The notes under the pieces: model-generated
Databases searched by the model: none
Told to the model about the DNA's origin: nothing
What the model saw: the letters and a program-made list of their open reading frames with translations, nothing else
Position numbers and translations under genes: made by a program
Shown here: positions 3,232-48,400 of the stretch, one piece after another
Position numbering within the stretch: position 1 is the first letter of the stretch
Layout: each line of letters opens with the position of its first letter
Assembly (NCBI GenBank): GCA_964035545.1
Contig: OZ037772.1
Location: 3,873,538-3,937,537, forward strand
Origin: Bugula neritina
Taxonomy: Eukaryota > Animalia > Bryozoa
Direction: 5' to 3'
Length of the DNA stretch: 64,000 nt

Positions 3232-3232
3232 C

Positions 3233-3250
3233 TGGTGGCAGCGGTGGGAT
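3233..3250 (+). promoter_or_regulatory. Primer-binding site complementary to the tRNA-Leu 3' end
   Basis: TGGTGGCAGCGGTGGGAT is the reverse complement of ATCCCACCGCTGCCACCA, the 3' end of metazoan tRNA-Leu(AAG/TAG) plus CCA; 1 nt after the LTR. Confidence 0.92.
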
Positions 3251-3300
3251 AATCGTCTGGTACAGACTAAGCTGATGCTCCCCCACGGGGAGAGACAACA

Positions 3301-4401
3301 ATGGATCCATTGAGGCCAGCGCCAGAGCTCAGGCTTGATGATGAAGCAGCAGGAGGACGCTTCACCCTAGAGGCATTGATTCGGACTCTCTAGGAAGACA
3401 GGGCAGCTGCACAGGCTCCACCTGGTGACAGGTTCCGCCTTAAAGCGCCAGTCTTCGACGGTGAAGGAAATGTAGAACAATTTCTACAAGAATTCCGCGA
3501 GGTGGCCGTGGCCTCCCAGTGGCCGGCCCAGGTGGAATTACTGCAACTACGGTCCTGCCTGACAGGTCGAGCCAAACCCTATGCGGTAGGCCCGAATAGG
3601 GACCACATCATTGAGGCTCTGCGCGGCCGCTTCGGACTTACCGTCCGGGACGCGAGAGCCCGCCTACAAGGACTCCGACGAGACCCTAAGGTCTCACTAC
3701 AGGATCACGCCAACAAAGTGGAGCAGCTAGTCCAGGTAGCCTACGGTAACGTAGACCTGGAGTCACGCCAGGCCACCACCTTTGATATCTTCCTGCAATC
3801 GCTCAATAACCTGAGCCTGCAACGGTATCTCTTGGCAGCTGGGGTCGACACCATTGAGGCTGCTCTGGCCAGAGGAAAGGCGTACTACCAGATCGGCGGG
3901 AGTCAGGACTGTGACAGCAGTGCCCGACGAGTCGAGTCAGACTGGGGAGAGGCTGCCGAAGACACTCGGCCGAGGCCTCAAGTAGCGGCCGCCGCCACTA
4001 CACCCCCAACCCCACCCGAACTCTCCATGGTATTGGAGGTGGTGGACAAACTGCAAGGAGAGATCGCAACATTGCGACGGGACCAAACTACTAACAGACC
4101 GGATCGGTCATACGGTAGTCAGCCCAACAAGGACGCTCAGTTAGAGCCTAGGGTAGCAGCTACTGCACCTACCCCATCGACCTCAGCCGAAGTCTCCATG
4201 GTACTGGAGGTGGTGCGAGATCTACAGGCCGAAGTTAAGGCCCTGAGACGGGCCCAAACTACTAACCGGCCGAATCAGCCACGTAGTAGTCGCCCCGAAG
4301 GGTCTTCTCTCACGTGTTGGAAGTGTGGGACAACAGGTCATGTGCAACGAGACTGTCCCCGAGGACGCAGCGGTCCTTTAAACACCCAAGGCCTGCGGTA
4401 A
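3301..4401 (+). CDS. gag: Gag of element 1 (capsid-like region plus CCHC knuckle), with an in-frame TAG at 3391-3393
   Basis: ATG 3301 is in frame with ORF 3502-4401; FRLKAPVFDGEGNVEQFLQEF upstream of 3502 aligns with element 2 Gag YRLKAPTFTGEEEVEQFIQEF; zinc knuckle CWKCGTTGHVQRDC. Confidence 0.9.
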
Positions 4402-8669: not shown

Positions 8670-8957
8670 GAGGAATATTACTGTGGCCAGATAGGGAAAG
8701 GATACCCTAGCTCGGAGGACGAAGGGCCCCCCTTGTATTACAACTATTCACCACCTAACCACACCACCAGGGAGGCTCGATATCGGCAGGAGATCACTTC
8801 GATGTTCCTCACCCAGGTCGGACAAAAACCCGATCCCGAAATTGGAAAAACCCAGGCGAGGGACTCTCGCGATAAACCACGAACGCATACTTTGTTCATT
8901 CCAATCGCAGCAAGCACACACGCCACACGGAATTTAATCTCTCGCCACCTAACAAAT

Positions 8958-10241
8958 ATGGATATTACACCCACTCACCTGAATGTTGAAGAAGAGTCCA
9001 GCACACACCCTGGTAAGTCCACTAGACTAGAATTACCTCCTATACCGGAGAATTGTCTAGGTGGTGATGACAGTAGAAACTCGAACTCTGATTCCCAGAG
9101 TAAGTTCGAGATGTGGAGAACTCACACTTGGAACTCTGAAGGGTCAGACTCAGAGTCACCCAACAAAGATTACCTACTTGACCAGGACATCCAGAGTGTC
9201 ACTCTACCCCCACCTCGGCAGCTCGCAGTATCGCGACGAGTGCTATACAAGGATATCACTAATAATGGAGTGAGTCAGCCATCACGAGTTGGAGATATCG
9301 GTCAGACTCGACCAGCTCAACTCTCTATTTCTGTTGTAGACACCGACAAAGTCGTAGAGCCTGCCTCTATGACTCTCACCTCATTCGGAAGATCCTCCGA
9401 AATCGCGGCACCCCAGGAGCAAGTAATGGAGGGAGATACAGAGACCCCTGCCACTGTCGTCGATATTGGACTAGATGAAGGGGAGGAACAGTGTATCCTG
9501 TCCCCATCCGGGACTACAGACCCCCCTCAAGGACTAGAGGGAGCTGGAGAGCTGGGACTACCACGTGTTTTCAGCACCCGGTCTCACTGGACCAGCACCA
9601 AGACGCGGATCCTGATAGCTGAGGCTTGTGGGGAGCCTAGCAACACGAAGTGCCCCACATGTGGGCGAAGCTTTACCTCGCACAGGCGACTACGGATACA
9701 CGTCCAACAACATTACGTCAACTCATTCTGTCCGTGTGGGGAGTTTAGCTTCCAGCGGGACTACGTGCTCAAGCAGCAACGTATCGGCCGCTGCCACACG
9801 GGCAGAATTTTTGATGTGGATGCGGACAATTATCTAGAGTTCAGGGACCTGATTCTCCCCCACATCAGCGATCCCAAGAAGAGGGAGCTGTTGTCCCAAG
9901 GGTTCCCGGCCTGTCGACCCACTAGTCAGACTCAACCGCCAGAGGACTCCCCAAGTTGTGAGTTGCCACCCACCCAGCCTCTCCGGGTAGTGGTAACTCG
10001 AGCCGAAGCTACTGCAGAAGGAGACCGCTGGACGCCACGAGAAACGGCCCGAACTAGAAGAGAACGGCGTCGGCAGGGCGCACCGAGGCCGCGTAGTATC
10101 ACTCCCTATACTACTAGGCACACACACCGTGGACCCCCGGAGAGTCTGGAGGATATATATCGTGGCCTGGACCGGATCTCTGAGGAACTAGGACGCATAC
10201 GACGCAGGCTGCAGGACCTTGAACAGCCCGCTCGACCCTAA
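8958..10241 (+). CDS. Accessory ORF3 of element 1: C2H2 zinc finger/Cys cluster/Arg-rich/coiled-coil protein; predicted exons 8958-9012 and 9340-10241 (318 aa); the unspliced frame is also open from 8670
   Basis: CPTCGRSFTSHRRLRIHVQQH, FCPCG...GRC, VDADNYLEF, RETARTRRERRRQ, LDRISEELGRIRRRLQDL; homologous to ORF3 of element 2; donor G|GTAAGT at 9013 and acceptor CTCTCTATTTCTGTTGTAG| at 9339, both phase 1. Confidence 0.8.
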   Translation: MDITPTHLNVEEESSTHPGKSTRLELPPIPENCLGGDDSRNSNSDSQSKFEMWRTHTWNSEGSDSESPNKDYLLDQDIQSVTLPPPRQLAVSRRVLYKDITNNGVSQPSRVGDIGQTRPAQLSISVVDTDKVVEPASMTLTSFGRSSEIAAPQEQVMEGDTETPATVVDIGLDEGEEQCILSPSGTTDPPQGLEGAGELGLPRVFSTRSHWTSTKTRILIAEACGEPSNTKCPTCGRSFTSHRRLRIHVQQHYVNSFCPCGEFSFQRDYVLKQQRIGRCHTGRIFDVDADNYLEFRDLILPHISDPKKRELLSQGFPACRPTSQTQPPEDSPSCELPPTQPLRVVVTRAEATAEGDRWTPRETARTRRERRRQGAPRPRSITPYTTRHTHRGPPESLEDIYRGLDRISEELGRIRRRLQDLEQPARP

Positions 10242-10427
10242 GGGTGACACTTTTCTTTATGTAAATATATATTCTTGTGTGTATTAATTCATTATCCCTT
10301 AACATTTTCTATCTTATATATTTTTGTTTGTGTGACTAGATTAGCCATTCCAGAACTCCCTTACATGTATTTTCTTTTATTATTATATTTTTTTTAATTA
10401 TATCAGAAAGGGGTTGTACTTTCTGAT

Positions 10428-10436
10428 GGAGGGGAG
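10428..10436 (+). promoter_or_regulatory. Polypurine tract of element 1
   Basis: GGAGGGGAG, 2 nt before the 3' LTR. Confidence 0.8.
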
Positions 10437-10438
10437 TG

Positions 10439-11155: not shown

Positions 11156-12022
11156 ATATAATTTATAACTTGTAGTTTATAGGTTGTTGTTTTTATATTC
11201 ATGTAACCAGTATTAGTATGAGATTGAGCATCTCAACTTTACGATTTAAATATTTTCTTAGAGAGAAGATTTGCCGTGCTCTACAGTTTTCATTACCTGT
11301 ATAAACAATAACGCTTGAGTTAAACTTCTAGTTTTAAACTAAATAGCTTAAACAAATTGATAGGTGATGTTAATCGTGTAGCTTAGTGATTTATGGATAA
11401 TTATAGATAATAAATATGGTTAAATAGAAAGCTACCAAGCCAGCTATTTGCTTTTTGATTTAATACTAAAATTAGTGATAAGTTTTTACGCAATTTTTAA
11501 ATGCAGCAAGCTGCTAACAAATTATACGCAGCCAATTTACTTTATTCATTTTTCATTTATTAGAGTATCAGAATAAGCATATTGCTTTTTTAAATAGAAC
11601 ACTGGTATTATTCTTAGCTTTCATTTATAATATAATTTATAACTTGTTGTTTTACTTTTTATATTCATGTAACCAGTATCAGCATCTTAACTTTACAGTT
11701 TAATTTTGTGTTGACAGTTTCTAGCCATTTCACTTGTGAAAATAACGTATATAAAATGCCGATGTATGTTTACTATGCTAATGCACATGCAACTAATCTT
11801 GACCTTTGCGTATGAACCTAAAAGAAAGTTAGATAGACCGAGAACCATCCGCCAGTAAAACAAAAGCAGGAAAATAACGCGGGAAATAAAATCGCCTAGA
11901 AAATCGGCTGATTTTTCAGTCAGCAATAGCGAAATCGACAAGCACAAAATCGGCTGAAAAAATCGACCTGTGTACATGTAGCTTAAGGGTCCTCAGTCGC
12001 AAAAACCAAAAGATAGCTTTTC

Positions 12023-12645
12023 CAGAGGTGTGGACATATTCAAAAGTTTCAAATTTGGGGAAGGAGAATCTATAGAGGTTCACAAGGATGTCTTAGAAAA
12101 ATTTGACAACTTTTGTAAAAAGACCTCCAACAAAATAATCAAGAGACATCAACTGCTATCAATAGATGAGTATGTCACCAACTTACATTGTTTATGAGCT
12201 TGATAGAGATAAAACTTCACTCAATACCAAAGACATATTTTCAAATATTGTTTTTTTTGTGTTTGCAGGTAAAAGACCATTTCTATGTGATGTCTGTGGC
12301 AAGGCTTTCAAGCGCAGAAAAATCTGATAAAGAGGATAAAACAAAAATGGCCATTCTAATGCGGACCATTAGACCCAGAGGTGTAGACATATTCAAAAGT
12401 TTCAAATTTGGGGAAGGAGAATCTAAAGATGTTTACAAGGATGTCCTATATATAGGAAAATTTGACAACTTTTGGAAAAAGACCTCCAACAAAATAATCA
12501 AAACACATCAACTGCTATCGACAAAACAAGAATGCTTATCAATAGATGAGTATGTCACCAACAGCTTACATGGGATCGCCAGAAAATGTGACCTTGGTGA
12601 CATGTATGATGTCTTTTTTATGCAGGCCTTTCTTCTTGGCATATA
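12023..12645 (+). pseudogene. Two partial tandem copies of a degenerate retrotransposon gag (copies of 14638-15400)
   Basis: VDIFKSFKFGEGES...KFDNF...IDEYVT segments at about 12023-12187 and 12316-12645 are near-identical to about 14720-15045. Confidence 0.7.
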
Positions 12646-12653
12646 TAATTTTG

Positions 12654-12955
12654 TATGCTCACATGGAGCTATAGAAGGAAATGTCAGCTAGAAGAGGAAG
12701 GAAATGGAGGTCAAGGCCAGCAACCCAATATCAAGGTCAACTGGAAGAAAGTAGTTTTAGGTCATGACTTGTCATTCTCAATTATGGCGGCTAGTTTGAG
12801 CACACTTTTGGACTAGAAGAGGAAGGAGACAAGGAGACCACAGAACTCTCTGGGGAGGGAGGTAAAACACGCTTCAGCTACAAAGCAAGAGTTGAAAAGA
12901 GAAATAATTGGAAAAAGTTGAAATTTTACTCCATTTGATCCAAAATTAACAGATA
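12654..12955. repeat. ~300 bp dispersed direct repeat, second copy at about 23909-24210
   Basis: TATGCTCACATGGA(G/A)CTATAGAAGGAAATGTCAGCTAGAAGAGGAAGG... shared with high identity. Confidence 0.85.
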
Positions 12956-13169
12956 TCAATAAGAGTTGCAATCACATGTTCTCCTGTAGTTTTCAGAACA
13001 AAAGGATGCTTTTGTTGAGCAGAGTCTTGAGCTTGGTGACTTGACAAAATTGCTTTGATCTTAGATAAGTCACAAAAGCATTTATTTGTAGTTAATCTGA
13101 ATACTAATATAAGACAGTTATAAACTAGATCTTAGTTTTAGGTCATATATAGTATGAAATTTTACAGAC

Positions 13170-14306
13170 ATGAAGAAACAACTAAAGGAGGTGCTGGATG
13201 GGCAGAAAAAACTGATGGCTATAATCACTGATAGCCATAGTGGCAAAGACAATATAACTGAGCAGCTGGAGGAGCCGCTAAAAACAATACAAGAGTTTGA
13301 ATCTCTTGAAGAACTTCTCCAATCCTCAAGAGAAAAACGTTCTGCTCTGGTACATAGTATGCTACTATATAATATAGATTGTAAAGCTAGTTTAAAAACT
13401 TTTGGTGTATAACATGCAATATATAACATCCTGGCGTAGTTGATATTAGAATACAATTTCTAGTGAACTGTAGATTTTCAAGCTATAAAGTGTGTTTCTC
13501 TTATGGAATGTTTCTCATTAAAGTGTTAGAAAAAATATTTGCCCCACTGCAATAACACATTGAATGTATTCATGTAAATTCATGCTATGAAATATAGGTG
13601 CATTAATGTTGTAGACAAAGTTTCTTTTCCAACTGGGAGGAAAAAACTGCGCAGATATGGTGAAAAGAGCCATGAGAAGAATTGGCACCAATGGGCTGTG
13701 GAGCCAATTCAGTATGAAGGGCAAAGCCCATAAACAACATAAAAAGCTGTCTCTAAAAATATATTGAAATAAAATCTGTATCAAAACTTATCAAATCTCT
13801 GGGGCTGCATCAGCAGTTAAAATAGTTGTTGAGTTGTTGAGTTTAGAATAATTGCTCATCTAAAAATTTACTGCATTCACTAAGTTTTACTTTCTAATTA
13901 TATTTCAGAAGCTCTGCTGAAAAGTAAAAATAATAAAGAAATAGATATAGAGATTGAAGTATCGCTATTTTTGCGGCAGTGCCCTTATCAACTGGGAGGG
14001 GATAAGTATAAAAAGACAAGTTTGCAAGATGAGGTTTTTGTTCTGTTGTTTTTCATTTTTCTTAACAAAATAAAGTAGCCATTACAGAGATCGGTGTAGG
14101 ATCGCAAACCTTTCACCAACGTTATATGAAAACCATCTACACAACGTTATGCAACACAACGTTTATGGAACGTTGGTGAAACTTTTTGAGATAAACGTTT
14201 GTTTTAAACGTTGTATACAGTACAAAAATGTGTCGACATTTAAACGTTTATTAAACATTTTGCCCAACGTTTATACAACGTCATATCAATGTAAATTGTT
14301 AGTGGG
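13170..14306 (+). mobile_element. Right part of a probable CACTA/EnSpm-type DNA transposon with a spliced DUF4806-like accessory gene remnant
   Basis: Exon-like pieces PLKTIQEFESLEELL...KRSAL and FQLGGKNCADMVKRAMRRIGTNGLWSQFSMKG resemble DUF4806 proteins; dense AACGTT subterminal repeats 14118-14280; terminus TGTTAGTGGG. Confidence 0.5.
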
Positions 14307-14309
14307 GTG

Positions 14310-14500
14310 ATTGCTAAAGAACTATGGGGATATTTTGATGGCTCTATAACTGAACCTGAAAAATCAGCTAGTGCTATACTAGACTGACTATACAAAGATA
14401 TTAAGCAAGGCTATGTCAATTATTGTACTCGCGATAATTTGCTATACCTCATAACCAGCTGCACAGAACCAAAGCAAGCATGGGGCACTTTACAAAAACA
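14310..14500 (+). pseudogene. Ty1/Copia gag N-terminal fragment
   Basis: Manual translation IAKELWGYFDGSITEP...KAMSIIVLAI...LYLITSCTEPKQAWGTLQKH, with frameshifts and a stop, is typical of Copia Gag. Confidence 0.6.
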
Positions 14501-14637
14501 CAGAACCAGAAAGCAAGTCAGAAAACTGACAGTGCCTTCCTCCTATCAAAAAGGGAGACAACCAACTACTAACCAAAAAAATACTTAAACGGACACTGGA
14601 TCTAAATTTGTCAAAATAAAAAATAGTTGTTGTAAAC

Positions 14638-15400
14638 ATGGCAACTGCACAAGATGGTGCAGAGTTGTCCACCCAATGGTCCTGCTTCAAGGAAGAGTTC
14701 AACTATTATCTGATAGCCTCAGAAAAATCTGATAAAGAGGATAAAATAAAAATGGCCGTTCTAATGCGGACCATTAGACCGAGAAGTGTGGACATATTCA
14801 AAAGTTTCAAGTTTGGGGAAGGAGAATCTAAAGAGGTTTACAAGGATGTCCTATATATAGAAAAATTTGACAACTTTTGTAAAAAGACCTCCAACAAAAT
14901 AATTAAAAGACATCAACTGCTATCGACAAAACAGGAATACTTATTAATAGATGAGTATGTCACCAACTTACATAGGATTGCCAGAAAATGTGACCTTGGT
15001 GACATGTATGATGATTTTTTTATGCAGGCCTTTCTTCTTGGCATCAACGACACAAACAACTTTAGAAAAAATTGTTTGAGGAGTCAGAAAAGATAGACCT
15101 CAAAAAAGCAATTAAAAAGTGCAAAGTGGCTGAGAGCTCTCAGAGTAATATGAAGACTATTAAAGCGGAAGGAGAATCAATTCATACACTTGGTCTCAAG
15201 GCCACTAAAGCAAACAAAAGTGCCAAACTGTACTTACGCACAACTGACAAGGAAGCGAATAATCCTGCCAAGTCTAACTGTGGAAACTGTGGAAACTGTG
15301 GCAACTCTCATCCTCCTGAAAATGCTTACGGTAAACAGTGTAGTAACTGCAAGAAATTCAACCACTTCAGAGCAGTCTGCAAAAGAAGGAAGATGCATGT
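14638..15400 (+). pseudogene. Frameshifted Gypsy-type gag with zinc knuckle (unrelated to elements 1 and 2)
   Basis: ORFs 14638-15096 and 15072-15440 join by a frameshift; QWSCFKEEFNYYLIA...IDEYVTNLHRIARKC and CSNCKKFNHFRAVC; no pol follows. Confidence 0.75.
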
Positions 15401-22525: not shown

Positions 22526-25500
22526 TAAACATGCACGTACATAAAGAAAATAACATTCATGCGACTAGTAGTAAATACTGTTTAGTATGAGCTTTTACTA
22601 ATTTTGCTATGGCATGTAGCTGCATTATAATAAATAGCGAGTTATTATACACCACTAAATGGATTGGTGAAGATCCTAAAGCACTTTATAGTCGTTTATG
22701 CAAAATTTTTCTTTCATTCCAATATATGAAAGTTATAAAACACGCACTAACTGAAAGCCAATTTTTTTCCAATAAAGTATATCATAGACTTGCATACTTT
22801 GTTCAGGAAAGAAGAGAGAGCCACAAAGGAAGAGCCACACCTACCATGTCTAATGAATACAGACCTGTCATATTAAGTATATAGCTATACAGACCTGCTA
22901 TACCAGATAAAAACAAACCTGCCATATTGCACAAAACTGAACCTGCAGTACTGAGCAAAGAGCAACCAATCAAATATTCCAAGCAAAGAGAAAACAATTC
23001 AGCATTGTGGAAAAACCTCTCCAGGGGGATCAGCAAACTCCGACAGCTGGTCAAAGTTTTAGCTACAGAAAAGGAAGAATTGCCGAGTATTGTAATTATT
23101 CAGTGAGGAAAACCGCATGTTTACCTTGTTCTGGTAACCACTACACAACTGTGAAGAGAAAGGGCTGGAAAGCTACACAGCTTTGAGAGATTTCTCATAC
23201 AGACAGCTATTCTATAAGAAGTGTTGCATAAGAGTTGTGACTATTGACTATTATAGACAGGGTTGTAAGAATGGGGACACAGTTTTAGGATTTCTTATTT
23301 TAGGAATCCAATACTTTAGTTATGTTATGATAGCATTAACTTAGCAGAAGCATTGGTGGAATTTGATATAATGCTTAATTACTACTCAAAGCAGAATAGT
23401 TTAATATTTTTTTTAAAAAGAACATAATATTATATTTGTATTTTCTTATAAATAGATGTTTATTGTACATGCCGATAACAAAAGTCAACTCATTATATGG
23501 TACACAAAAGTTATATCTGTAAATGAACATGTGCATGCTGCAGTTGAAGAATTAAAAATAAAATGAGAAGGAAACAAAACGTATTCAACTAGATGAGTCA
23601 TCAGATGACATTGCTGTATAAAATGACGGATTAGGAAAGAGAAAGTATGTGGAAACAAAGCAACACTGAACTACAATGTGGCTAACAAATACTAGGTCAG
23701 CAGAAATAATATCATATTCAATAAATAAAATACCAAGAGGTGTAAAATGTCAATATAAGTACACATAGAGAAAATAGGTGATATACAGAATAAAAACTAA
23801 CAGTTTAATATTGATATAGCTTTTCAATTTCACACAAACATAACATCTTTACAAGGCATTATTGTATATATAACTATTTGTATTAGGAGAGAGAAACAAT
23901 ATAATTTAGTATGCTCACATGGAACTATAGAAGGAAATGTCAGCTAGAAGAGGAAGGAAATGGAGGTCAAGGCCAGCAACACAATGTCAAGGTCAACTGG
24001 AAAAAAAGTATTTTTAGGTCACGACTTGTCATTCTCAAACATGGTGGCTAGTTTGAGCACACTTCTGGACTAGAAGAGGAAGGAGACGAGGAGACCACAG
24101 AGCTCTCTGGGGAGGAAGGTAAAACACGTTCCAGCTACAAAGCAAGAGTTGAAAAGAGTAATAATTGAAAAAAGTTGAAATTTTACTCCATTTGATCACA
24201 AATGAACAGATATTATTAAAAAAAATTTCCACAGATTTTAAAGCTGCTATGCCAGGACAACTATAGCATATTATAATTATATTATCACCTCATTATATAA
24301 TAATCATATTACATGATATATTATATTGTTTACATGCCATATTATCATTATATTATATTATAATCATACTATGTTATAAATATGGTATACTATTATATTA
24401 TACTATATCAATGTACATGACTTGCACCAAGTAGATGCCAAACGTTACCTTTTCTGTGTTGGCAACTTGGGGCAGAACTCTTTTGGGTGGAAGGTCTGAA
24501 ATAGATGGGGAAGAGATGATTCACCGCCCCTAGCAGAGGCGTGATGTCAAGAGAAGAATCCGAGGCTAAGTTACGACAACTTTTTCTCATGGTGTTGGCG
24601 GCTTTGAGAAAGATAGCTCTGTCGCACTCCTTGCCTGAAGACAGGAAATGATCATTGTACTTCCATAAAGGAAACGTACATGAACTGTATCAGAAGCTCA
24701 AACTAACATATGTTAATGGTAATGGAAGATATAACAATCCTAATGAGAATTAAAGGCTCTATTAATAGTAATCATTAGATATCTGAATTTGAATTGTGGG
24801 AGGCTAACGCACTCACCCTGAGTAAACATCAGTTTGAACAGAGCACTGAGGTTATCTCCAATACTGTTGAGACTAGCTATAGCCTGGGAGCACATTTCAT
24901 ATTGCAGCCACGGGTCTACCTTGGTGAATTTCATACCTTCCAACTGTAAAAAGACGACAGAGCGAATAAAAATGAATAACTGAACAGAGAATACATTCAA
25001 TAACAGGTGGTTGTCAAGTGGGTGATATTCACTACTGCTTCCCACTGATCGCGTGATGTAACAGTCAAATATGACATCACATGTCGACTCACTCTGCACT
25101 GGGGTGGCTGTGACAAGCAGTGCTCCATACTCAGACCACCCACAGTCTAAGCACCTGGAGCACTGCCCACACATGGCAAAAAGTGACAAGACAAAGTGCT
25201 GGGGATAACTAGCAATACAAAGAGAATTAACAGTCAGAGTATGAAGTTGGTACTCACCAGTTGGAAAGTGTTCCCAATATCATCTCTATAACTGGTTAGA
25301 AAGGATTGCACTTGGTTGAGGACTCTGTTAACAGCACCATAAATATCCTCTTCAGCGTGGCAGTTGCCGGCACCTGCACAACATGAAATAACTACCACCT
25401 GCTATTCGTTGACATCTATGAGACTATAGTTGCTAGTGACATCAAATGACAGGTACTTGGTCAGCAAATTTATACAAAGATGAGAGTTCTACTGTCACTT

Positions 25501-36851: not shown

Positions 36852-37946
36852 CTGTAGATGTGAAGAAAACATGCTACCTAAGATTTATACCCTCAATTAT
36901 AACTTTTCAAAAGAAAAATAAAAATTGTAGAAACTTTGGAAGTTAGATGTGTTTTCAAAATGTGAAGTAAAAAACACAATCCAAAAAGAATATAACCAAT
37001 TACATGACTTGTTACATATTTAGATGCTGAACACTTTTTAAATGAAGCAGATAATCATAAGCGAGCTGAAAAGCATATTACAGTGGCTGGTTAAAAACAC
37101 ACATACTCCCACTTTTCTCATAAACTGTAAATACGCCCACACTCACATTGGTACCTGAACTCATACTGAAAGCGTTGCTCATAGCTGGTTCATATTGATA
37201 CTGATATCATAAAGTTAATAATGATATTCATCCTCAATAGTAGAGTTAGTAAATGGTATTGATTCACCCACAATGACAATTACTTGCAAAAGTTATTGAA
37301 TTATTTATTTATTGACTTGGTGAGTTATTTAATTTTATCAATTATAATGTGTATCATTCAAATGTGAATGTTTGTTTGTTTGTTTGTTTTCTTTATTTCC
37401 ATCAAAACAAAAAACAAAAGGACAAAAAAATACAAATATACAACAGTAACACAAAAAGAGCTAAATTCAATTTATATATAATATCAATCGAAGTCAAGAT
37501 GGGGGCCCATGTGCTCAGTAGCATAGCTATTCAAGGAATGGGGCCCAAGTGGCAGTTGAAAAAATAGTTGAAAAAATGTTGAAATGATCTAGTCAATTTG
37601 ATTACCTCATACTAATTTCGATTCATCGCAATTGTCGCAATAATTTTGCTATAGGGAATCTTATTAAATTTGACAATTGACATTCAGTTTCACGATGCTC
37701 ATTCAGTGATTGACAGCTAGTCTTACATTGACCTTCAAGCGTAAAGCAACAGAATCTAACAGTAAGTGTAACTATAAGATTAAGTATATTTAGTTTACTA
37801 TCAAGTATTAACATTACCACGTAAAATTAAAATCTGTCAGTGTCTATAAAATTAAATTCCATAAAGCAAAATTACAAACCATTTTTATTCATGCTCTAAC
37901 TTTGAAACCAGTGATACAAAAATAGTGTCATATCATTATTTGATAT

Positions 37947-38252
37947 TGTTATAATTTTCAGATTTAGGGTTGATATGCTATCCAGAGAGTCTATTTATCT
38001 AGTATAGAACTGCACCAGGCTAAGTCGAGTGAACGAGTATATTTTATACACAATTATACATTATAAAAACACGATACATTATTCCCAACAAGTTACACAT
38101 CTAATCTATTTCACACTCTAGCTTCGACTGAGTTAGCAGCGGGAAACTACAATTGCTGCTAACTATCAACTACGCTAATTGGCTATCCATTGTTCCGGGT
38201 CAATTACGCGACCCTACATGTTGTGCTGCTGGTAGTTCCACGAACCACCACA
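37947..38252 (-). repeat. 3' LTR of element 2
   Basis: Direct repeat of 45136-45441 with 9 substitutions counted; preceded on the minus strand by G-rich PPT-like GGTGGGGGCGG. Confidence 0.96.
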
Positions 38253-38532
38253 CCGCCCCCACCAGCAGAAAGCCATTTTTCTGATATATATATATAAAAA
38301 ACATTCAATAGTAATTGCATACATCAGTGGACAAAAATAATACATAATATACAGGAAGAGACATAATAATACACAGAGTCGTTATAACGATCTGTTGCAT
38401 ACAATTGGCCAGCTGTAGATAGACGAGGAATACTAGCTAGCTGTGGTATTAGACAAGGAATAACCTGTCTAGCAGTTAAGCATTTGCACGAGTTTGGTTC
38501 TTCACCAAATGTGGAGTATTCTGGGTAGCATA

Positions 38533-39609
38533 CTAGAGTCCTTGTTGGGCACGCCGGTGCTTGGCTTGGCATGTACGCAGTTTCCGTTTCATACGGCATA
38601 CGGATCCCTTCAGCTGGAAGAGTCCTGTGGTAGTGTTGAGTAGATCTGGCGCCAGCTGGGTGAACTCTTCTTGTAATCGTAGGAGGCGTTCTTCTACTGT
38701 AGCTAGTCGTACTGGGTCTGGGGACGGTGTCCGTCTGCGGCGTAATGGTGGACTGGGGGACCTGGTCCGTCTCTTCGCCGGGGTAGGGGAGATCTCTCCT
38801 TCTTCTGGATATGTAGTTTCCTCGGGGGTGTAGGTAATTGGAGGGCGGTCAGACACCAACGGGGATTGTTGGCGGGCGTTGTCTAACACACTTTGGAACC
38901 CCGAGGATAGAACGGCTAGTAGCATGGCCTTCTTTACCAGAGGTCGTATATATGTGAGGAACTCCGGGTACAGCTTAGCGTCGACCACATAGTTTTCTCC
39001 AGGGAAACAGCCCGCCGCTCTGTGTCTGGTGACGGGGTAGGGATACACATCATTGTACCCGCAGGGGCAGAAGGTCAGTAGGAGATGGGCATTGACGTGT
39101 AGTTTAAGGGAGCGGTGAGAGGCGCAATCTTCACCACAGATCTGGCATCTCGTCCGTCCTCTGGACCCCCAGGCTGTTTCTATTTCTTCTTCGGTTTGTG
39201 GAGACACCCACCGCCAACGGCGGCGTAGTGGCTCAGGCCGGTCACCACTAGCATAGTCCTCCGGATACGGAGCGGGAAGTGTTCTATCCCGTACCCTGGT
39301 TGTAGCGGGTCGAGTGTAATCTGAAAAAGTTTCAACAGTGTTAGTACATTACACTGCTGTGTTGTCAGCTTGAACAGCTTGGCAACTCCTAATTCAGTTA
39401 CCTCGTAGAGATTAATGATAGTGAATAGTCAGATAGAACCGTATTGCAATGAGATTATAAAAATCTCTAAGTCAAACTAAGTTCTTACTACGGTATTTCA
39501 CTAACCTATCTCCAGCTCGATTGACTCAGTGAGTCAGAGCTGAGCGATGCAATCTAGTTTCGTATTAAGATATAGTTAACTCACCCCACGATCTGTTGTC
39601 GTAAGACAT
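38533..39609 (-). CDS. Accessory ORF3 of element 2, spliced: exons 39609-39585 and 39320-38533 (270 aa, MSYDNRSWDYTRP...)
   Basis: CQICGEDCASHRSLKLHVNAH, FCPCG...H...GC, VDAKLYPEF, KRRTRSPSPPLRRRR, coiled coil LATVEERLLRLQEEF. Exon 2 has no in-frame ATG before the finger. Donor G|GTGAGT (39584), branch TACTAAC (39346-39340), acceptor TTTTTCAG| (39321); phase 1 on both sides. Confidence 0.8.
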
Positions 39610-39633
39610 ACTGAATATGTGAAATGGTTTGAA

Positions 39634-42600
39634 CTACTGCTTAGAAACACGTCTACTCTTGACTGCATCAGCGTATGAAAAGATCGAGCAACGTGGTTGG
39701 GGTGCGTGATTAAGACTTTGTGCACCCGGCGGATGAATTTTGTTCCTACTTCCGCCGATACAAAAGTTGATATTTCCGTGGTGTTGACAACCCCCACATT
39801 TGCTCGATTCTTTTCTCGTACGGTTTTCCCCTAGACTTTCACGTGCGCCGCTTCTAATGCAGTCACATACGAAGTCTTTTAAATACGGTGGGGGTTTCCT
39901 CGTACGCTGTCCCCTTTCTAGGGGGGGTGACACGCTTGCCGGTTCAATAGTAGGGGCCTCTAATGGCGTCTCTACTTCACCGTCAGCAGTCACCTCTTCT
40001 TGTTCTCCGGATGGAGCCCCTCCCTCCGTGGGGGTTTGCACTTCCGGAACCGGCTCGGTTTCTGGAAGTGATGGAATTAGACTTGGCGGTGGCGGACACG
40101 CTTCTGTTGCCAGAAGCTGCCGCTCCTCTCTCACCAAGTTTTCTTCCCGCGGTATGACCACTTCGTATTCAGGTCCATGCCGCCGTCGCCCGCGCGTTGT
40201 TGTCTGCCTCCTGGGCTCTAACAACGGGGGGGCTTCTCCCACTCCGCCGGGGCTAGCCCAATACGGTTTCAAGCGAGACTCATTCTGGATAGACACCTGT
40301 CCTGAGCGCTCAATCTTGTACGTATGATTGGGCATAGCCTCGACGACCACGTAGGGGCCTACGAACTTAGGCTTCAGCTTATCAGCCTGTCCGCGGCGCC
40401 TACGGTAATTGACCATCCACACCTTATCTCCTCTTTGATAGAGGGGTGGTTCATCGGAATCTTCGTGCCGCACCTTCCACTGCTGTTGACGCAGTATATC
40501 GTGTGCGGCCTTCATCCGTTCCACTAGTTCACTGGCATACTCGTGAACCGAGTTATCTTGCTCTGGAACGTGATAGGCGAGATGGTCAGGGACACGAGTC
40601 TCTCTCCCGAGCATCAAGAGGTTTGGGGTCTCACCAGTACTGGTGTGTGGGGTGCTACGGTATGCACGCATGACTTGTGGCAACACCGTATCCCATTCCT
40701 CTTGACCTCGTCCAAGGAGGAGACTCCGGAGCGCATCACCTAGCATCCGGTTGTTGCGCTCCACCACCCCATTACCTTGAGGGTGGTAGGGGGTGGTCCT
40801 GCTCTGATTTACTCCCCAGAGGTGGCAAAGGTCGCTCATCAGTTGAGACTGGAATTGAGCGCCTTGATCAGAGTGTATCTGTTCGGGAAGCCCAAAATAA
40901 CAGAATACATGTTGGTCTAGCGCCCTGGCCACTGTTGGGGCTGATGCATCTGGGATGGCCAGAGCATCCGCCCACCTAGTAAAGTGGTCGGTTAGTACTA
41001 GGATCCAATTATTGCCTCTGGGGGTCAGGGGCATGGGTCCGACCAGGTCTACAGCGACTACTTGCCAGGGCCTACCAGCATATAGCCTCCGCCGTCCTGC
41101 TTCACCAGGGGGGCGGCTATGCTTACTGGCCTGGCAGATCTCACACTGTTTGACTCTGAGCCGGACGTCACGCTCCATCTGCGGCCAATACCACCGGAGT
41201 CGTAATTTGGATATCACTCGCTTGACCCCTGCGTGGGCCTGCTTGTGAGTATCCCAAATCAACTCACGGCGGATGGCTGTGGGGCAGACTACCCTCTTCC
41301 TTTCCGGGTGTCTGCCGCTGGCAGCTAGAGAGATGGTTAGCAACCCATCCTGCCCGATCCGCAGCGAGTCCCAACGCTGACAGTATAGCCTGAACTCGGC
41401 GCATCCCTGTCGTATGCGTTCCTCGCTGGGTCGTCGCCCTTCCCTTTTGGCCCGGTATATGTCTGCCACGACTCCAGGCAGCTCTTCTTGGAGCTTCTTC
41501 AGCTCTCGAACATTACCGGCCAGTACAGGGTTGGCGCGGAGGTTTTGTACATCCTCCGGGGATTCATCAACTCTCTGCCTGAGTTGACCTTGATCCCAGT
41601 CAAACGGTGCTCCGCGATGAGCCAGCGTCTCCAACTCGCATCGTGGGGGACCTCCATCCCTCCTCTCGATGTTGAGACACTGTTTGCAACCTCCGTCAGG
41701 TCGGCGACTCAACCCATCCGCATTGCTGTGTCTCTTGCCCGGTCGATGTTCGATCCGGTACGAGAATTCAGCTAGGATTTCGAGCCACCGGGCGACCTGA
41801 CTAGAGGGCTCTGCTCTCCTGCACAACCAGATCAGTGAGGCATGATCCGTACGCAGCCGGAACTTCCTGCCATATAGGTATGGTCTGAAGTGCTTCACTG
41901 ACTTGATTACTGCCAGCAGTTCCTTGCGGGTAGTGCAGTAATTTCGTTCAGCGGGAGAGAGAGACTTGCTGTAGTAGGCTACTACTACTTCTCGGCCTTC
42001 CTGCACTTGTGACAGCACAGCGCCGACATTCTGGTCACTGGCGTCCGTGTCTAGGATGTACTCCAGAGTGGGGTCTGGGTAGGCCAAGATGGGCGCCGTT
42101 AGGAGGCAGCCCTTGAGGCGGTCGAACGCTTCTTGTTCGACTGGAGTCCACTGCCACGTCACTCCCTTTGCGGTAAGCCGGTTTAACGGCTGGGCTATGC
42201 CCGCAAAGTCTGGTATGTATTGCCTGTAATACCCTACCAGCCCCAAGAAAGCCCGGAGTCCGGTCAAGTCTTGGGGGGTGACCCAGTCTTCTACTGCCCT
42301 TACCTTCTCGGGATCCGTTGCCACGCCGTTTCGACCGACAACGTGCCCCAGGTACTTGACCTCCGGCTGCAACAGAGCGCACTTGGAAGGTTTGAGCTTA
42401 AGACCGGCACCTCGGAGTCTCTCGAAAACCTCCTGCAGACGACTGACATGTGTCTCGAAGTCTGGAGAGATTACGATGACATCATCGAGGTAGACCAGCA
42501 GTGTCTTCCAATGGAGTCCGCTAAGGACTTGTTCCATCAGCCTCTGGAAGGTGGCTGGGGCGGAGGTTAACCCGAAGGGCAGCACCTTCCACTTCCACAA

Positions 42601-44262
42601 ACCGTCCCGTGTGATAAACGCCGCTTTCTCTTGGGCGTCGGGACTCAGAGGAACCTGCCAATAGCCGCTTAGCAAGTCTAATGTACTGAAGTACTTGCTG
42701 CCGGCTAGAGCGTCCAATGACTCGTCAATGCGAGGTAGAGGGTAGGCGTCCTGTATGGTTACGCTATTGAGTTTGCGGTAGTCCACACAGAACCGCCAAC
42801 TGCCGTCTTTCTTCCGGACCAGTACGACTGGCGAGCTCCACGCACTATGGGCGGGCTCTATCAGTCCCCGGTCCAGAAGATCCCGTACTTGTCGGCTAAC
42901 CTCCTTCTCTTTCTCCGGCCCCAGCCTGCGTGTGGGCTGCCGGACAGGGACTGTCCCTGCAGTCAGCGGTATTTCGTGTCTGACAATTCCAGTCAGTCCC
43001 ACGTCATGCTCCCCGCTGCTGAACACATCACCGTAGTCGCGTAGTAACTTGGCCATAGCTTGGCGTTCTCTGTTACTCGCGCAGCCGCCACTGGCTGTCT
43101 CGTATAACTCCCGGAGATGTGTTGGGACTGCCCCTCGTCCCTGAATAGGGTGTCGAGGGAGTGCCTCTGTCGCATCACCCAGCGACGGGCCTACGTCTCC
43201 CTCTTGAACAGAGTGAAAACGGCCCAGCATCGACCCAGCCGGGAGCTTGATAGGCTCGGTAAAGGGGTTGACGCACTGCACTAAGATCTCCCCTTGCTCA
43301 GTCAGCTGATTCAGACTGCTGGCAAGTTGGATCTTTTCGTGCGCGCCTTCAACCACCCCGAGTCCAGAGATCCGGCTACTATTCACCCTGCAGTGAATGG
43401 TAGCCCGGGAGCGGCCTGGTATGGTACGGTTGCGTACCACTTGCACACCTCCCACTAAAGGGCAGCCGAACTTGTCGACGCAGGCGAGTTCCCGCCCGGA
43501 CATCATCATTGCAGATCTGCTAAAATCTATGTGACATCCGTGCCGTTTAAGGAACGGCATCCCGAGGATAGCATCCTCCTTGAGCTGACTGACGATAAAC
43601 GTCTCTTGGATCGTTTGATCACGGACTCGTCCCGTCAGCTCAATTATACCATAGAAGGGAAGGCACGACCCGTCAGCTAGGGTGCCGTATTCCCCTTCGT
43701 ATGCTTCCATCTCGCCCCTGACCCTAGCACTGAGGGTGTCGAAGAGTTGGCGGCTTAAGAGGTTTGTGGTACAGCCCGAATCAATGAGAAAAGTAACAGC
43801 TTTGCCTTCCAGTTTGCCGGGCAAGAAATAGCTGTTCCCATGGGGCTGCACCTGAACTCTCCCTTCAGGCCTTACTCTCGCAGGGAGTACCCCCCTCGCT
43901 TTGGGTCGCGAAGGAGGTCTCTTGGGGCGGTGATAGGCAGGCCTCGGGGGTGCCGAGGCTAGATTCTCAGCTACCTTTGTGTGCTCCCATCCAGATTCTT
44001 GGACTTGTAGCCCTGTGAATCTGTTGTGAAGGGGCATAGAAAAGGCAGCCGCGGGGCGAAGCCCCTTGCTGGTCCGTCGTGGCTGTTGCCACTGTTGGTT
44101 GCCAGTACGCGGTACCCGTCTGGGTGACCTGCGTTTCTTCTTCCCTAGAGGTTTCGTCGGCCCGCGGAAGGTGGGAACATCTGCGGGCCGCGGTAGTTTA
44201 ACCCCTGATTTAGGAAGGGACAATATCGGCGGAAATGTCCTTGATTTCCGCACTCCCAGCAA
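39634..44262 (-). CDS. pol: Pol polyprotein of element 2 (protease, RT, RNase H, integrase)
   Basis: LIDSG, YLDD, DTDAS, HKQAH...CEIC, DDE core, KFVGPY; uninterrupted 1542-codon frame. Confidence 0.97.
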   Translation of the reverse strand: MLGVRKSRTFPPILSLPKSGVKLPRPADVPTFRGPTKPLGKKKRRSPRRVPRTGNQQWQQPRRTSKGLRPAAAFSMPLHNRFTGLQVQESGWEHTKVAENLASAPPRPAYHRPKRPPSRPKARGVLPARVRPEGRVQVQPHGNSYFLPGKLEGKAVTFLIDSGCTTNLLSRQLFDTLSARVRGEMEAYEGEYGTLADGSCLPFYGIIELTGRVRDQTIQETFIVSQLKEDAILGMPFLKRHGCHIDFSRSAMMMSGRELACVDKFGCPLVGGVQVVRNRTIPGRSRATIHCRVNSSRISGLGVVEGAHEKIQLASSLNQLTEQGEILVQCVNPFTEPIKLPAGSMLGRFHSVQEGDVGPSLGDATEALPRHPIQGRGAVPTHLRELYETASGGCASNRERQAMAKLLRDYGDVFSSGEHDVGLTGIVRHEIPLTAGTVPVRQPTRRLGPEKEKEVSRQVRDLLDRGLIEPAHSAWSSPVVLVRKKDGSWRFCVDYRKLNSVTIQDAYPLPRIDESLDALAGSKYFSTLDLLSGYWQVPLSPDAQEKAAFITRDGLWKWKVLPFGLTSAPATFQRLMEQVLSGLHWKTLLVYLDDVIVISPDFETHVSRLQEVFERLRGAGLKLKPSKCALLQPEVKYLGHVVGRNGVATDPEKVRAVEDWVTPQDLTGLRAFLGLVGYYRQYIPDFAGIAQPLNRLTAKGVTWQWTPVEQEAFDRLKGCLLTAPILAYPDPTLEYILDTDASDQNVGAVLSQVQEGREVVVAYYSKSLSPAERNYCTTRKELLAVIKSVKHFRPYLYGRKFRLRTDHASLIWLCRRAEPSSQVARWLEILAEFSYRIEHRPGKRHSNADGLSRRPDGGCKQCLNIERRDGGPPRCELETLAHRGAPFDWDQGQLRQRVDESPEDVQNLRANPVLAGNVRELKKLQEELPGVVADIYRAKREGRRPSEERIRQGCAEFRLYCQRWDSLRIGQDGLLTISLAASGRHPERKRVVCPTAIRRELIWDTHKQAHAGVKRVISKLRLRWYWPQMERDVRLRVKQCEICQASKHSRPPGEAGRRRLYAGRPWQVVAVDLVGPMPLTPRGNNWILVLTDHFTRWADALAIPDASAPTVARALDQHVFCYFGLPEQIHSDQGAQFQSQLMSDLCHLWGVNQSRTTPYHPQGNGVVERNNRMLGDALRSLLLGRGQEEWDTVLPQVMRAYRSTPHTSTGETPNLLMLGRETRVPDHLAYHVPEQDNSVHEYASELVERMKAAHDILRQQQWKVRHEDSDEPPLYQRGDKVWMVNYRRRRGQADKLKPKFVGPYVVVEAMPNHTYKIERSGQVSIQNESRLKPYWASPGGVGEAPPLLEPRRQTTTRGRRRHGPEYEVVIPREENLVREERQLLATEACPPPPSLIPSLPETEPVPEVQTPTEGGAPSGEQEEVTADGEVETPLEAPTIEPASVSPPLERGQRTRKPPPYLKDFVCDCIRSGARESLGENRTRKESSKCGGCQHHGNINFCIGGSRNKIHPPGAQSLNHAPQPRCSIFSYADAVKSRRVSKQ

Positions 44263-45104
44263 AAACTGACTGTTTCTCCCTGTGGCGGCGCCGATGGCCG
44301 CATGGGCTCAGGGGCGGTACTCACTGGGTTTTGTGGTGTCAGTGTTGCTATCAGCTTGGCTAGCATGTCCGTCAGTTGAGTGACTTTTGATGCCGTCGCC
44401 AACTGGGACACGGCAGCCGCGGCGGGGGTTTCCTCCCCTTGTCCCGCGGCCGTGTCTGCGCGGTCTATCTCCACTTGGCGGGAGCTTCCGCGACTTTTAT
44501 GCATTTGGTTAGCTAGGAGGTAAGCTTCCCCCTCAGTCAGAGCATCTTCAACGGTGGTGACTCCCCTAGCTAGAAACTGGTGGTGGAGACCCAGATCGTC
44601 GACAGATGCTATGAAAGCGTCGAGGGTGTACCTCTCACGGTTGACTGGGGGCAAGTCGCTGTACGCGATCTGTGCCAGCTTCATGACCGCGGCGGCATGC
44701 TCCCGCAGCGGGGTGCGGGGATCACGCCGCAACCTCTGTAATCGGGCCCTGGCATCTGTAGCCGAGAGGCCAAAGCGGGCCCGCAGAGAAGCAAAGATAT
44801 TATCAATGTCTACGCCCAGCCCATAGGGCTTGGCTTTGTCCATCAATGCCATTCTAAGCTTCAGCAGGGCCACCCTAGGGGGCCACTGAGCGACGTCCAT
44901 TACGTCGCTAAACTCTTGGATGAATTGTTCCACCTCCTCTTCACCCGTGAAGGTGGGCGCCTTTAACCTGTAGTGGTATTCAGCTAGTTCTCGTGGAACC
45001 CTTCGCTCTTCTACTACATGGTTAACAGGCATTGTCTCTACAGCATTGTCTCTACGCTCACCTTCGATTGCCGGTGGTTGAGTTCCAGCATTTTCAGTCT
45101 CCAT
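44145..45104 (-). CDS. gag: Gag of element 2
   Basis: Intact 319 aa ORF starting 13 nt after the PBS; CWECGNQGHFRRYC knuckle; homologous to element 1 Gag. Confidence 0.95.
   Translation of the reverse strand: METENAGTQPPAIEGERRDNAVETMPVNHVVEERRVPRELAEYHYRLKAPTFTGEEEVEQFIQEFSDVMDVAQWPPRVALLKLRMALMDKAKPYGLGVDIDNIFASLRARFGLSATDARARLQRLRRDPRTPLREHAAAVMKLAQIAYSDLPPVNRERYTLDAFIASVDDLGLHHQFLARGVTTVEDALTEGEAYLLANQMHKSRGSSRQVEIDRADTAAGQGEETPAAAAVSQLATASKVTQLTDMLAKLIATLTPQNPVSTAPEPMRPSAPPQGETVSFCWECGNQGHFRRYCPFLNQGLNYRGPQMFPPSAGRRNL
44159..44202 (-). promoter_or_regulatory. -1 frameshift signal of element 2
   Basis: G TTA AAC in gag phase, 6-nt spacer, stem GGCCCGC/GCGGGCC spanning 31 nt as in element 1; pol is in the -1 frame. 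Confidence 0.75.
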
Positions 45105-45116
45105 CTTGGATGCACC

Positions 45117-45134
45117 ATCCCACCGCTGCCACCA
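45117..45134 (-). promoter_or_regulatory. Primer-binding site (tRNA-Leu)
   Basis: Minus strand TGGTGGCAGCGGTGGGAT, identical to the element 1 PBS. Confidence 0.92.
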
Positions 45135-45135
45135 C

Positions 45136-45441
45136 TGTTATAATTTTCAGTTTTAGGGTTGATGTACTATCCAGAGAGTCTATTTGTCTATTATAGAACT
45201 GCACCAGGCTAAGTCGAGTGAACGAGTATATTTTATACACAACTATACATTATAAAAACACGATACATTATTTCAAACAAGTTACACATCTAATCTATTT
45301 CACACTCTAGCTTCGACTGAGTTAGCAGCGGGAAACTACAATTGCTGCTAACTATCAACTACGCTAATTGGCTATCCATTGTTCCGGGTCAATTACGCGA
45401 CCCTACACGTTGTGCTGCTGGTAGTTCCACGAACCACCACA
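45136..45441 (-). repeat. 5' LTR of element 2
   Basis: 306-bp repeat adjacent to the PBS. Confidence 0.96.
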
Positions 45442-48400
45442 ATAGCACTGATATTGACGTGACCGTGGCGCATGAAAAATCTGAAAGAAGAGTTGTCTTC
45501 TTTTTTTCTATATTAATATATAGAGCTTGTCGTGAAAATAAAGATTTTTAAAAAAAATATTGTGACCCTCTGGTAACTTCCAGAATTTAGAAAATTGGCT
45601 CATATATTTCCTTTCATGTGGACAACAGCTCACTTTTTTTTAAATTTATTTTGAAGCTCCTTTCGTAAAAAATATTTAAAAGTAAAAAATCCAAATTTTT
45701 TACAAATTGGTTCGGGGCTTGATGTGAAAGGCATTTAGACGAAGATGTCAAGGTCACCATTAATAAATTTATTTTATCACAATACTGCACGGAAAGTTAA
45801 TGAAGTGAGCTGAAAATTAGGTTGCTAGCATATTGATATACATTATATTGATTGTTGCAGTATTATTTTTTAAATTTGTTTTATCAGTTATGTTTAACTT
45901 CTTCATAGAGCTGCTGTTAGACTAAGAGTAAGACATAATATTAGCAACAAAGATAATAATATTAAATTATTATTAAATTCACGAAGAAGTATCACCATCA
46001 CTATGACTATGAGTATGACTATGACTATCACTATGAGTGTCGTAATCGTATAAATTAATTATGAGTATGAGTATCACTATGACATTAACTCAATCAGTGA
46101 TTGACTAATACTGTGAATATGACTATGCATAACTCAATGAGAATATCAATATGAATATGGCTTCTAATTCTTGTAACTTTAACTTTTGACTATGACGATG
46201 CTGATACTGATAGTGATAATCACTGCCAGCCCAAGTCTCATACTCATAGCGATACTATTACTATTGTTTATTAGTATTAATAATTAGTATTACTATTAGT
46301 ACAACCACTAGTATTACTCATAGTTCTGTTAATGATGCAGATGATAGTTTTAGAAGTTCTACTTCTACTTTTATAGTACGCTAGATTGTATATGTTGAAC
46401 TCTACTCATTTTTTACTACTAATGCTAATACTAATAGTAATAGTAATAGTGATTATAGTTGTTATAATGATAATAATACTAATAGTAATAATAACTATTT
46501 AAATTTGATAATATATGTTTTACAACAGCATTATCACTTATCAATTACATTGGTTCATAATATGCTTATTTTAATTTTGCTTTGTGTGTTTTGTCCTGTT
46601 ATAAAATTAAGTTCGTATGGTTATTTAATGAACTAGAGAACTAGCCAAATGTTATGTAACAGTTGCAATAATTTACTATAAACTCAGTGAAATTTAAAAC
46701 CTAATTGATATTACTATGACATTGATTGTACAGAGGTAGCTAAAATATACATTAAATTACCAATAATTTTAACTCGCCAATACACTATGAGTAGAACAAT
46801 CAAATGCAATGATAAAAAATTAATTAGTCATAGCAGCCCGTTGCTTGAAGAACATCGAGCTACAGGTCTAAAATGATGTAGTTTTGTGATCCATTACATA
46901 ACAAAATAATTTTTTTCAAACTGGTTTAATACTTTTATTATGAACACGCTTATCAAAGTAACATGTTTGTGATGTATATTCTATTAAAAAAGCAATCACA
47001 TCAGGTTTTCAATTTGTATGTTGTACAATGTTTATTATGGTGACAAGTTACTAAATCATATGGTTCAGCTTTGTAAAGTAAAGCTGATAAAATAAATACA
47101 AGTATGTGATTGTTTTACTGCTATATATTAAATTTAAATGAGTTGAATAATATCCTAGTGCAGTGAATTAGATATTTTTTAGCTTTGGTACACCTGTTTG
47201 TTATAGGCTAACATTCCACCAATAGAAGAATGGTGCAAGTAGAAGAAATTTCAGGCGCAGAAAGCTAAGGAGCAGTCAGAATGCTGCCAGAGTTGTGAAG
47301 AGGCACTTAAAAAAGCTGAATTTCAATAATGACATGACATTCGTAACATATCACCCTGGTGTATTTGAACTGACATGGCCAGCAGAGTTCTTGAAGTCAC
47401 ATTCAACAGCTATTTACATCATCATGGTTAGCTTAAATTTAATTCCTATATCAGTCTCTAATATATAGTTTGATATCTGCTGTAAATTCGCTTAAGAAGC
47501 ATACACATAACCAAAACTGAGTTACACTATAGTATTTGTTCTTGAATATATTTACCAAGATAAGTAGATTTGCTAATTCATTAACAGTAAAATTATAATG
47601 ATACAACAATTTTTCTTTTAGATGATTCAATCAATAACACAAGACACTACAACATGGTTTTGCAGTTATAGAGTATTAATTTTCTGGCTCTTTCCAAATC
47701 TTCATAGAAGGCAAAGAAAACCACCGTCAGCTTGCCTTTATAACTGAGTGCAAGCTTCTTCCACCTACAGATGATGATAAACAATTTGCTGATGTGGAAC
47801 TTTCTAATTTTGTTTACAATGAAGATAGATTATAGGACATTATTCTTTATGTAAAGATTGTCAAGTTTTGTTATAATTAAGAACAGTTTTAGTTTCAATA
47901 AATCAGTTCAACATTATGGACATCATTGCACAAACATTTTAATCTTTACTACCTACAAAGGTATCTGATGGACTACTTGAAAATACAAAACTATGCTCCA
48001 GATACACAATGAACTGACCAGCAAAGTTAAAATGAGTTGGAGATGTAGAACATAATATCTTGTTCAAGGCTTTTCCCTGCTGTTGGAACCTTCTACTTCA
48101 GAACACTGAATTGAACAAACATATGTAGATATATAAAACTTTGCAAACAATGATAATGTGAAATTAGTTGCTAAGTATCACATTGCTAATAAATACAGCG
48201 TTGTGTAATGTTTTATTTAATTTTTTTTTGAGCCATTTGATCTATAGGCCCGCATAGTATTTACTATATTATAACTAATAAATTGCAGACACATTATGTC
48301 AGACCAGTCTCCATTTAAATAGAATCGTGTAGGCTATCAAATTTGTAGAAGTAAAAAACCGCATTCTTATCGAGTAAAATACTTACCTTTTTTTTCATGA

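Follow-up and report, generated by a model that had tools for sequence, protein, structure and literature searches.

The window, the whole 64-kb stretch of DNA that was analysed, is AT-rich, repeat-rich and animal-like, and contains two Ty3/gypsy elements: element 1 on the plus strand (2515-11155, LTRs of 717 nt, 99.9% identical) and element 2 on the minus strand (37947-45441, LTRs of 306 nt, 97% identical). In both elements, gag and pol are followed by a third open reading frame (ORF3) before the 3' LTR, and the pol domains are ordered PR-RT-RH-IN (Pfam). The two pols are 72% identical to each other, while the third ORFs share 33% identity over 127 residues. Dispersed repeats of another element lie at 12022-15096 and 23899-24219, and an ORF at 14620-15093 gave a weak Retrotrans_gag match (E 9e-4, under the cut-off).

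Element 2 has the features of a Ty3/gypsy (Metaviridae) LTR element: TG...CA LTRs (5' LTR, 45136..45441, 306 nt; 3' LTR, 37947..38252, with 9 differences to the 5' copy), a primer-binding site (45117..45134, an 18-mer identical to that of element 1 and presumably of the tRNA-Leu type), a target duplication, and gag followed by PR-RT-RH-IN. The 4-nt flanks are ATAT/ATAT for element 1 (2511-2514 / 11156-11159) and ATAT/ATAG for element 2 (37943-37946 / 45442-45445), which suggests a common target preference. All features of element 2 given here are on the minus strand. Its gag gene (44145..45104) specifies 319 aa with a CCHC knuckle at the C-terminus, and the pol frame (39634..44307) is -1 relative to gag and closes with a TAG stop ending at 39634. 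The two overlap at 44145-44307, where GTTAAAC near 44200 is a candidate slippery site. At 45118, where the primer-binding site ends, 14 nt ahead of the gag ATG, lies an out-of-frame ATG that could lower translation of gag and ORF3. The leader and 3' UTR folded no better than shuffled sequences.

Probable splicing of ORF3

A sequence-only reading of this locus had proposed that ORF3 of element 2 acquires a start codon through a small sense-strand intron, running from a mini-exon with its ATG at 39609 and donor at 39584, through a branch point at 39346-39340, to an acceptor at 39321. All of these motifs are present. The zinc-finger frame is open from a TAA at 39351-39349, and the first in-frame ATG (38925) lies behind the fingers, so that none precedes them. 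Homology to element 1 extends, as claimed, upstream of the GTG (V48) from which the frame had been called, beginning at residue 38, ten residues earlier (E 6e-19). The acceptor (TTTTTCAG, 39321..39328) is in phase 1, ends at 39321, and opens the main ORF3 exon (38533..39320); upstream of it is the branch point TACTAAC (39340..39346), a motif that occurs together with a pyrimidine-rich YAG only twice in the window, counting both strands. The spacer between pol and the main exon (39321..39633) is AT-rich and probably forms the non-coding 3' end of a large intron.

Homologs were drawn from JGI and Logan records (59 matches at E 0.001 among 1483 candidates). The starts at V or L in these records indicate gene callers that do not splice, so that some of the proteins are read through the spacer. 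Setting P0032 (below) aside, the 29 read-through homologs form 15 groups at 85% identity and 7 at 75%, and their residue at -1 is S (25/29) or L (4/29), preceded at -2 by F (16/29) or L (13/29) and followed by D/G-x-T; these counts come from amino acids, not codons, and from copies related to one another. In these proteins, the F/L-S/L|D/G pattern is what a pyrimidine tract followed by a phase-1 YAG would leave behind once translated, which makes it very likely that the acceptor at 39321 is genuine; with no ATG before the fingers and a conserved acceptor footprint, element 2 ORF3 would need splicing to this site. Upstream of the acceptor, the frame of the spacer that a relative matches varies, as copies are offset from one another by one to several bases, and the TAA is not fixed, Y being found in its place in P0007 and P0008; the spacer therefore behaves as non-coding sequence. 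An in-frame Met lies between acceptor and domain in 26 of 30 relatives, the four without it belonging to the element-2 lineage, and in 18 of 29 there is a Met three codons before the acceptor. Many relatives could accordingly make most of the protein from unspliced RNA, and the missing ATG is a peculiarity of the element-2 sub-lineage.

The donor is where our interpretation departs from the earlier one. A listing of GTRAG sites on the sense strand revealed a second in-phase donor that the earlier reading had missed, AAG|GTGAGC at 45061 (donor, 45056..45061, phase 1), located 14 codons plus one base into gag, counted from its ATG at 45104. Joining the resulting gag segment (45062..45104, probably the exon with which the coding part of the ORF3 mRNA begins) to 39321 removes 5741 nt and gives an in-phase frame that is open for 276 aa, under a gag start codon in strong context. 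Phase-1 GTRAG sites occurred in 2 of 62 windows of 75 nt in pol. The true donor is probably this one, judging from related proteins, and the assignment of 39584 probably wrong.

This donor is supported by homolog P0032 (JGI contig, 5320 nt), which begins MAEEGTELPIPRNEDHTRLT. Its residues 1-14 are identical to the N-terminus of gag protein P0257 (14/14) and match eight more gag proteins at 13/14; when its start was compared with 324 proteins, the best 25 matches were all gag. Past residue 14, P0257 reads G-E, whereas P0032 fuses directly to the post-acceptor residues D-H-T-R. Other ORF3 relatives show S or L before D-H/Y-T, and in the closest unspliced relative, P0192 (82% identity in the exon), DHT is preceded by YTLS. 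With a gag-identical start fused to post-acceptor residues, the break in P0032 coincides exactly with both the donor and the acceptor that were predicted. The donor has a footprint in gag as well, visible as an E-G-E island. A gag search gave 129 matches, 120 of them listed; 53 reached the N-terminus, and 67 were dropped as too short there. At the donor position these 53 read G-E or S-E (50), R-E (1) or D-E (2), and codons for G, S and R can all be xGT. Among 21 gag representatives under 75% identity, with N-termini of differing length, the three E-G-E columns were kept at 0.86, 0.81 (with a further 0.10 S) and 1.00, compared with 0.19-0.62 in the five flanking columns on each side.

P0032 belongs to a sister subfamily of element 2 in a tree of ORF3 domains. 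Of 199 ORF3-family proteins it alone has the gag join; the 6 proteins that match its residues 1-60 contained no further spliced form, and neither did the 30 clusters looked up. A spliced copy of element 2 would measure 1754 nt from LTR to LTR, against 5320 nt for the P0032 contig. Going by its sequence, P0032 may well stem from a DNA copy that was reverse-transcribed from spliced RNA and kept the primer-binding site and both ends, an origin that we favour with some reserve; a deletion at a shared AG could mimic the join. Taken together, the gag donor, the P0032 join and the E-G-E island indicate that ORF3 is most likely expressed from a subgenomic RNA of the env type, and comparison with these relatives makes it highly probable that element 2 itself is spliced from 45061 to 39321 in vivo.

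Two sequencing runs match the stretch examined for reads, and the gag donor at 45061 lies outside that stretch. RNA run X1 (share 0.07) gave 7 low-depth contigs, none of which covers 39244-39579, including the acceptor. Run X2 gave 1702 contigs of many diverged copies with eight joints, none at 39321 or 39584 (6 of 138 loose ends being listed). Searches of metagenome, viral and genome contigs with ORF3, integrase and RT as queries mostly returned no relative, and one gave three loci. One of these, L001 (394-5403), carries a eukaryote-type gypsy pol, 45% identical to the RT of element 2, on a contig that ends before any ORF3; the contig is filed in a bacterial MAG and is probably host contamination.

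Element 1 may be spliced in the same manner. Its ORF3 frame (8670..10241, plus strand, 523 codons) contains a strong candidate phase-1 acceptor ending at 9339, a point at which the GC content goes up from 0.49 to 0.57; P0096 has S-F-F-L-F-T|E before the domain. The candidate phase-1 donor in its gag (CTG|GTGACA, 3425..3430) is weak. The upstream part of the frame is open for 223 codons, lies in frame after pol, and has ATGs at 8802 and 8958, and a 479-aa record, P0118, is nearly identical to element 1 ORF3. The pol stop of element 1 (8667-8669) lies in the same frame as ORF3 and inside a motif that the pol tail of element 2 continues, and the gag of element 1 has an early in-frame stop at 3391-3393 despite the 99.9% identity of the LTRs.

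Two other ways of starting ORF3 translation were weighed against the gag splice. The mini-exon of the earlier reading (39585..39609, 25 nt, with 8 codons from the ATG and one further nucleotide) does join the acceptor in phase, giving 270 aa with no stop, and the 264-nt intron bounded by GGG|GTGAGT and 39321 contains stops in all three frames (6, 12 and 6) and has a GC content of 0.37, against 0.56 for both pol and the ORF3 exon. An AG (39612-39611) directly precedes the putative exon, its donor equals that of gag in match to the U1 consensus (7/9 each), and when the 313-nt spacer underwent 5000 dinucleotide shuffles, an in-frame path of ATG, donor, branch point and acceptor arose only 0, 7 and 58 times under strict, medium and loose patterns, which were picked after the site had been seen. 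P0025, one of the read-through homologs, has its start 88 codons upstream of the acceptor and reads V-S-Y there, as a GTGAGT footprint would, and a deep X2 contig over 39460-39616 differs by one letter. Yet P0025 resembles the entire spacer, so that the kept donor may be plain DNA conservation, and the peptide was resembled by none of 324 proteins (best score 28, self 48). The spacer has a predicted fold of z -2.25 (3/100 shuffles), in which a hairpin (39582-39626) contains the mini-exon and pairs the GU of its donor; used behind the gag exon, the 26-nt cassette would shift the frame and reach a stop after 46 codons. That the mini-exon provides the main route, from a putative internal promoter near the end of pol or by double splicing, is improbable. 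The mini-exon could be due to chance, or serve as a minor route or a regulatory cassette, and is at most a minor or frame-shifting cassette; the predicted hairpin is a candidate cis element limited to unspliced RNA. Rfam gave no match in the spacer, and no response element was identified. Even less probable is that no splicing takes place at all, with translation from a Met near the acceptor by internal initiation or read-through, a decayed copy in the window, and P0032 the product of a chance internal deletion. The in-frame Met of 26/30 relatives and the arrangement of element 1 would suit this explanation, but it leaves P0032 broken at exactly both predicted sites, the E-G-E island conserved in gag N-termini, and four sequences of the element-2 lineage with an intact frame and no Met. 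The claim of a splice-dependent start codon thus stands as regards the acceptor, and is replaced as regards the source of the ATG and the small intron, since the sole spliced form among the 199 proteins joins the gag start to the acceptor.

The ORF3 protein

The ORF3 profile search recovered 123 clusters (50% identity) at E 0.001. The common domain spans 133 residues (38845..39243 in element 2) and comprises a C2H2 finger, a CxC..H..C finger and packing helices; C33, C36, H49, H53, C59, C61 and H74 are nearly invariant, and the residues of the Cx2C-x12-Hx3H finger (C33, C36, H49, H53) are kept in at least 90% of 73 sequences. Pfam matches came up in 8 of 73 sequences at E 0.01, and the domain stays below all Pfam cut-offs. 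The domain was modelled with a pLDDT of 95.7 as two fingers packed with helices, whereas the full-length model was poor (pLDDT 55.9). A variable S/P-rich linker connects the domain to a conserved long helix (218-270; 38536..38715), coiled-coil-like and ending in an Arg-rich tail; a tail with 5-9 R/K was present in 30 of 34 aligned sequences. Patterns resembling export signals were found in 31-32 of the 34, as would be expected in any coiled coil. An ORF3-like motif, E-K-x-I-E-x-x-W-G, in another frame of the pol tail (39817-39776) was considered as a relic duplicate and rejected as probably due to chance (5/300 and 67/300 shuffles with two profiles).

Fold searches with the domain gave no match at E 0.001 in the PDB or BFVD and none at Z 5 among 48,161 chains, which is no proof of a new fold. 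The ESM Atlas returned unnamed clusters at 0.95-0.96 as well as finger families. The best rows of the wide search were DNA-binding finger pairs, Kaiso/ZBTB33 (Z 3.6) and SALL4 (Z 3.4), which share two consecutive fingers with the model (residues about 23-81 of the domain), but these alignments extend over 51-57 residues only, and the ORF3 domain adds N- and C-terminal helices. An identity as Env was ruled out: the protein has no signal-peptide or membrane-anchor pattern and no transmembrane-like stretch (highest 19-residue hydropathy 1.36), and carries a zinc-finger domain instead.

When 73 domains were placed in a midpoint-rooted tree (134 columns), elements 1 and 2 fell in separate supported clades. 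Among the 30 clusters looked up, the only named relatives were two isoforms of one uncharacterized gene of the bryozoan Watersipora subatra (XP_067940963.1 / XP_067940964.1; P0091 / P0329), which carries the domain twice (E about 5e-42 and 5e-39 against the family profile) together with a C-terminal helix; P0137 also has two domain copies. Unlike the element ORF3s, this gene is annotated on a 66.5-Mb sequence and has an N-terminus unlike gag. Its sequence makes either a domestication or a source of the ORF3 domain possible.

A possible role in handling unspliced RNA

The reading that we consider likely is that the third gene of element 2 is made by splicing the gag start and 14 codons (donor 45061) to 39321, yielding a predicted 276-residue two-finger coiled-coil protein that would act in the nucleus so that the unspliced gag-pol RNA is preserved and exported, in the manner of CERV from Cer1 or of HIV Rev. 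A single RNA would be driven from the LTR, serving in unspliced form as genome and gag-pol message, and the splice would give ORF3 the start codon of gag. The perfect branch point and consensus donor would make splicing the default outcome, and the basic, likely self-associating finger protein would feed back such that unspliced RNA is retained or exported. The earlier proposal that spliced and unspliced RNA must coexist is supported, while no paradox of a small sense intron arises, because the intron would be the ordinary large gag-pol intron of env-type splicing, and it stays in every full-length copy, the unspliced RNA being the genome.

The earlier analogy to Rev is a reasonable one, and has a precedent in the CERV protein of Cer1, a Ty3/gypsy element of Caenorhabditis. 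CERV shares its N-terminus with Gag, ends in an ORF located after pol and before the 3' LTR, and is needed for gRNA export; it is a 517-aa protein from five exons that contains a C4 loop and a G-protein-like domain, and its homology is stated not to reach beyond nematodes (PMC10309623, PMC3315495). ORF3 is probably alike in having an N-terminus in common with Gag and an end in a post-pol ORF, but differs in its two predicted exons, 276 aa, C2H2 and CxC..H..C fingers and C-terminal zipper. Going by the published description of CERV, its H, M (C4 loop) and G-protein-like domains set the two apart, and in ORF3 the 276 aa, taken up by Cys/His fingers and one long helix, leave no room for a G domain. 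ORF3 would also resemble HIV Rev, as a small, basic, helical product of a spliced RNA with possible feedback on unspliced RNA, but no sequence or fold match to Rev and related export proteins was found.

In the splice itself the nearest likeness is to env of insect errantiviruses of the idefix subclade, described as a third ORF behind pol whose main exon is spliced to a donor in gag, and which encodes an F-type envelope with a signal peptide and transmembrane segment (PMC12992720). ORF3 is likewise probably spliced to an exon in gag, as read from protein records, but has neither of these segments and has zinc fingers instead. Insect errantiviruses are not known to have a Rev-like protein, and the fact that they manage gag-env splicing in this way counts against an export role for ORF3. 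By analogy with CERV and Rev, a nuclear location and a role in export of unspliced RNA are put forward as a tentative suggestion, not far short of an even chance.

In the main rival reading, which retains the gag splice, the protein would bind DNA and activate the LTR or counter its silencing, comparable to Tat, Tas or Tax, with no part in RNA export. The tandem fingers do align weakly to DNA-bound C2H2 pairs (SALL3, E 6e-6 over 22 positions), a coiled coil with a basic tail is like that of dimeric transcription factors, and the bryozoan RefSeq gene has two domain copies, as a host regulator might. We nevertheless regard this as less likely, since no fold match exceeds Z 3.6 or reaches E 0.001, the second finger departs from the usual type and has helices wrapped around it, and splice sites of such strength suggest that unspliced RNA has to be protected. 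The most far-reaching version of the export reading is more doubtful again, namely that an invertebrate Ty3/gypsy lineage independently evolved a Rev-like switch, with the mini-exon as a frame-shifting tuner, spliced RNAs copied back into DNA, and the domain exchanged with a bryozoan host gene.

The splice design is already known, while the ORF3 protein family and its natural spliced copy appear to be undescribed. The accessible portions of PMC13524379, PMC8220671, PMC12440569, PMC11963269, PMC8556966 and PMC6238403 contain no description of a comparable finger ORF, and no paper on the family was found in the open literature, although Repbase, GyDB, subscription journals or supplements may annotate it. 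For most additional ORFs that LTR retrotransposons carry in the env position, no function is known, and CERV was the only export regulator of such elements found in the literature. The ORF3 family would be a second candidate, unrelated to CERV, whose splice junction is defined and whose unnamed domain is well folded, features which make the balance between spliced and unspliced RNA in env-less retrotransposons testable outside nematodes. For annotators there is also a warning, in that an ORF3 without a start of its own may use the gag ATG 5.7 kb away.
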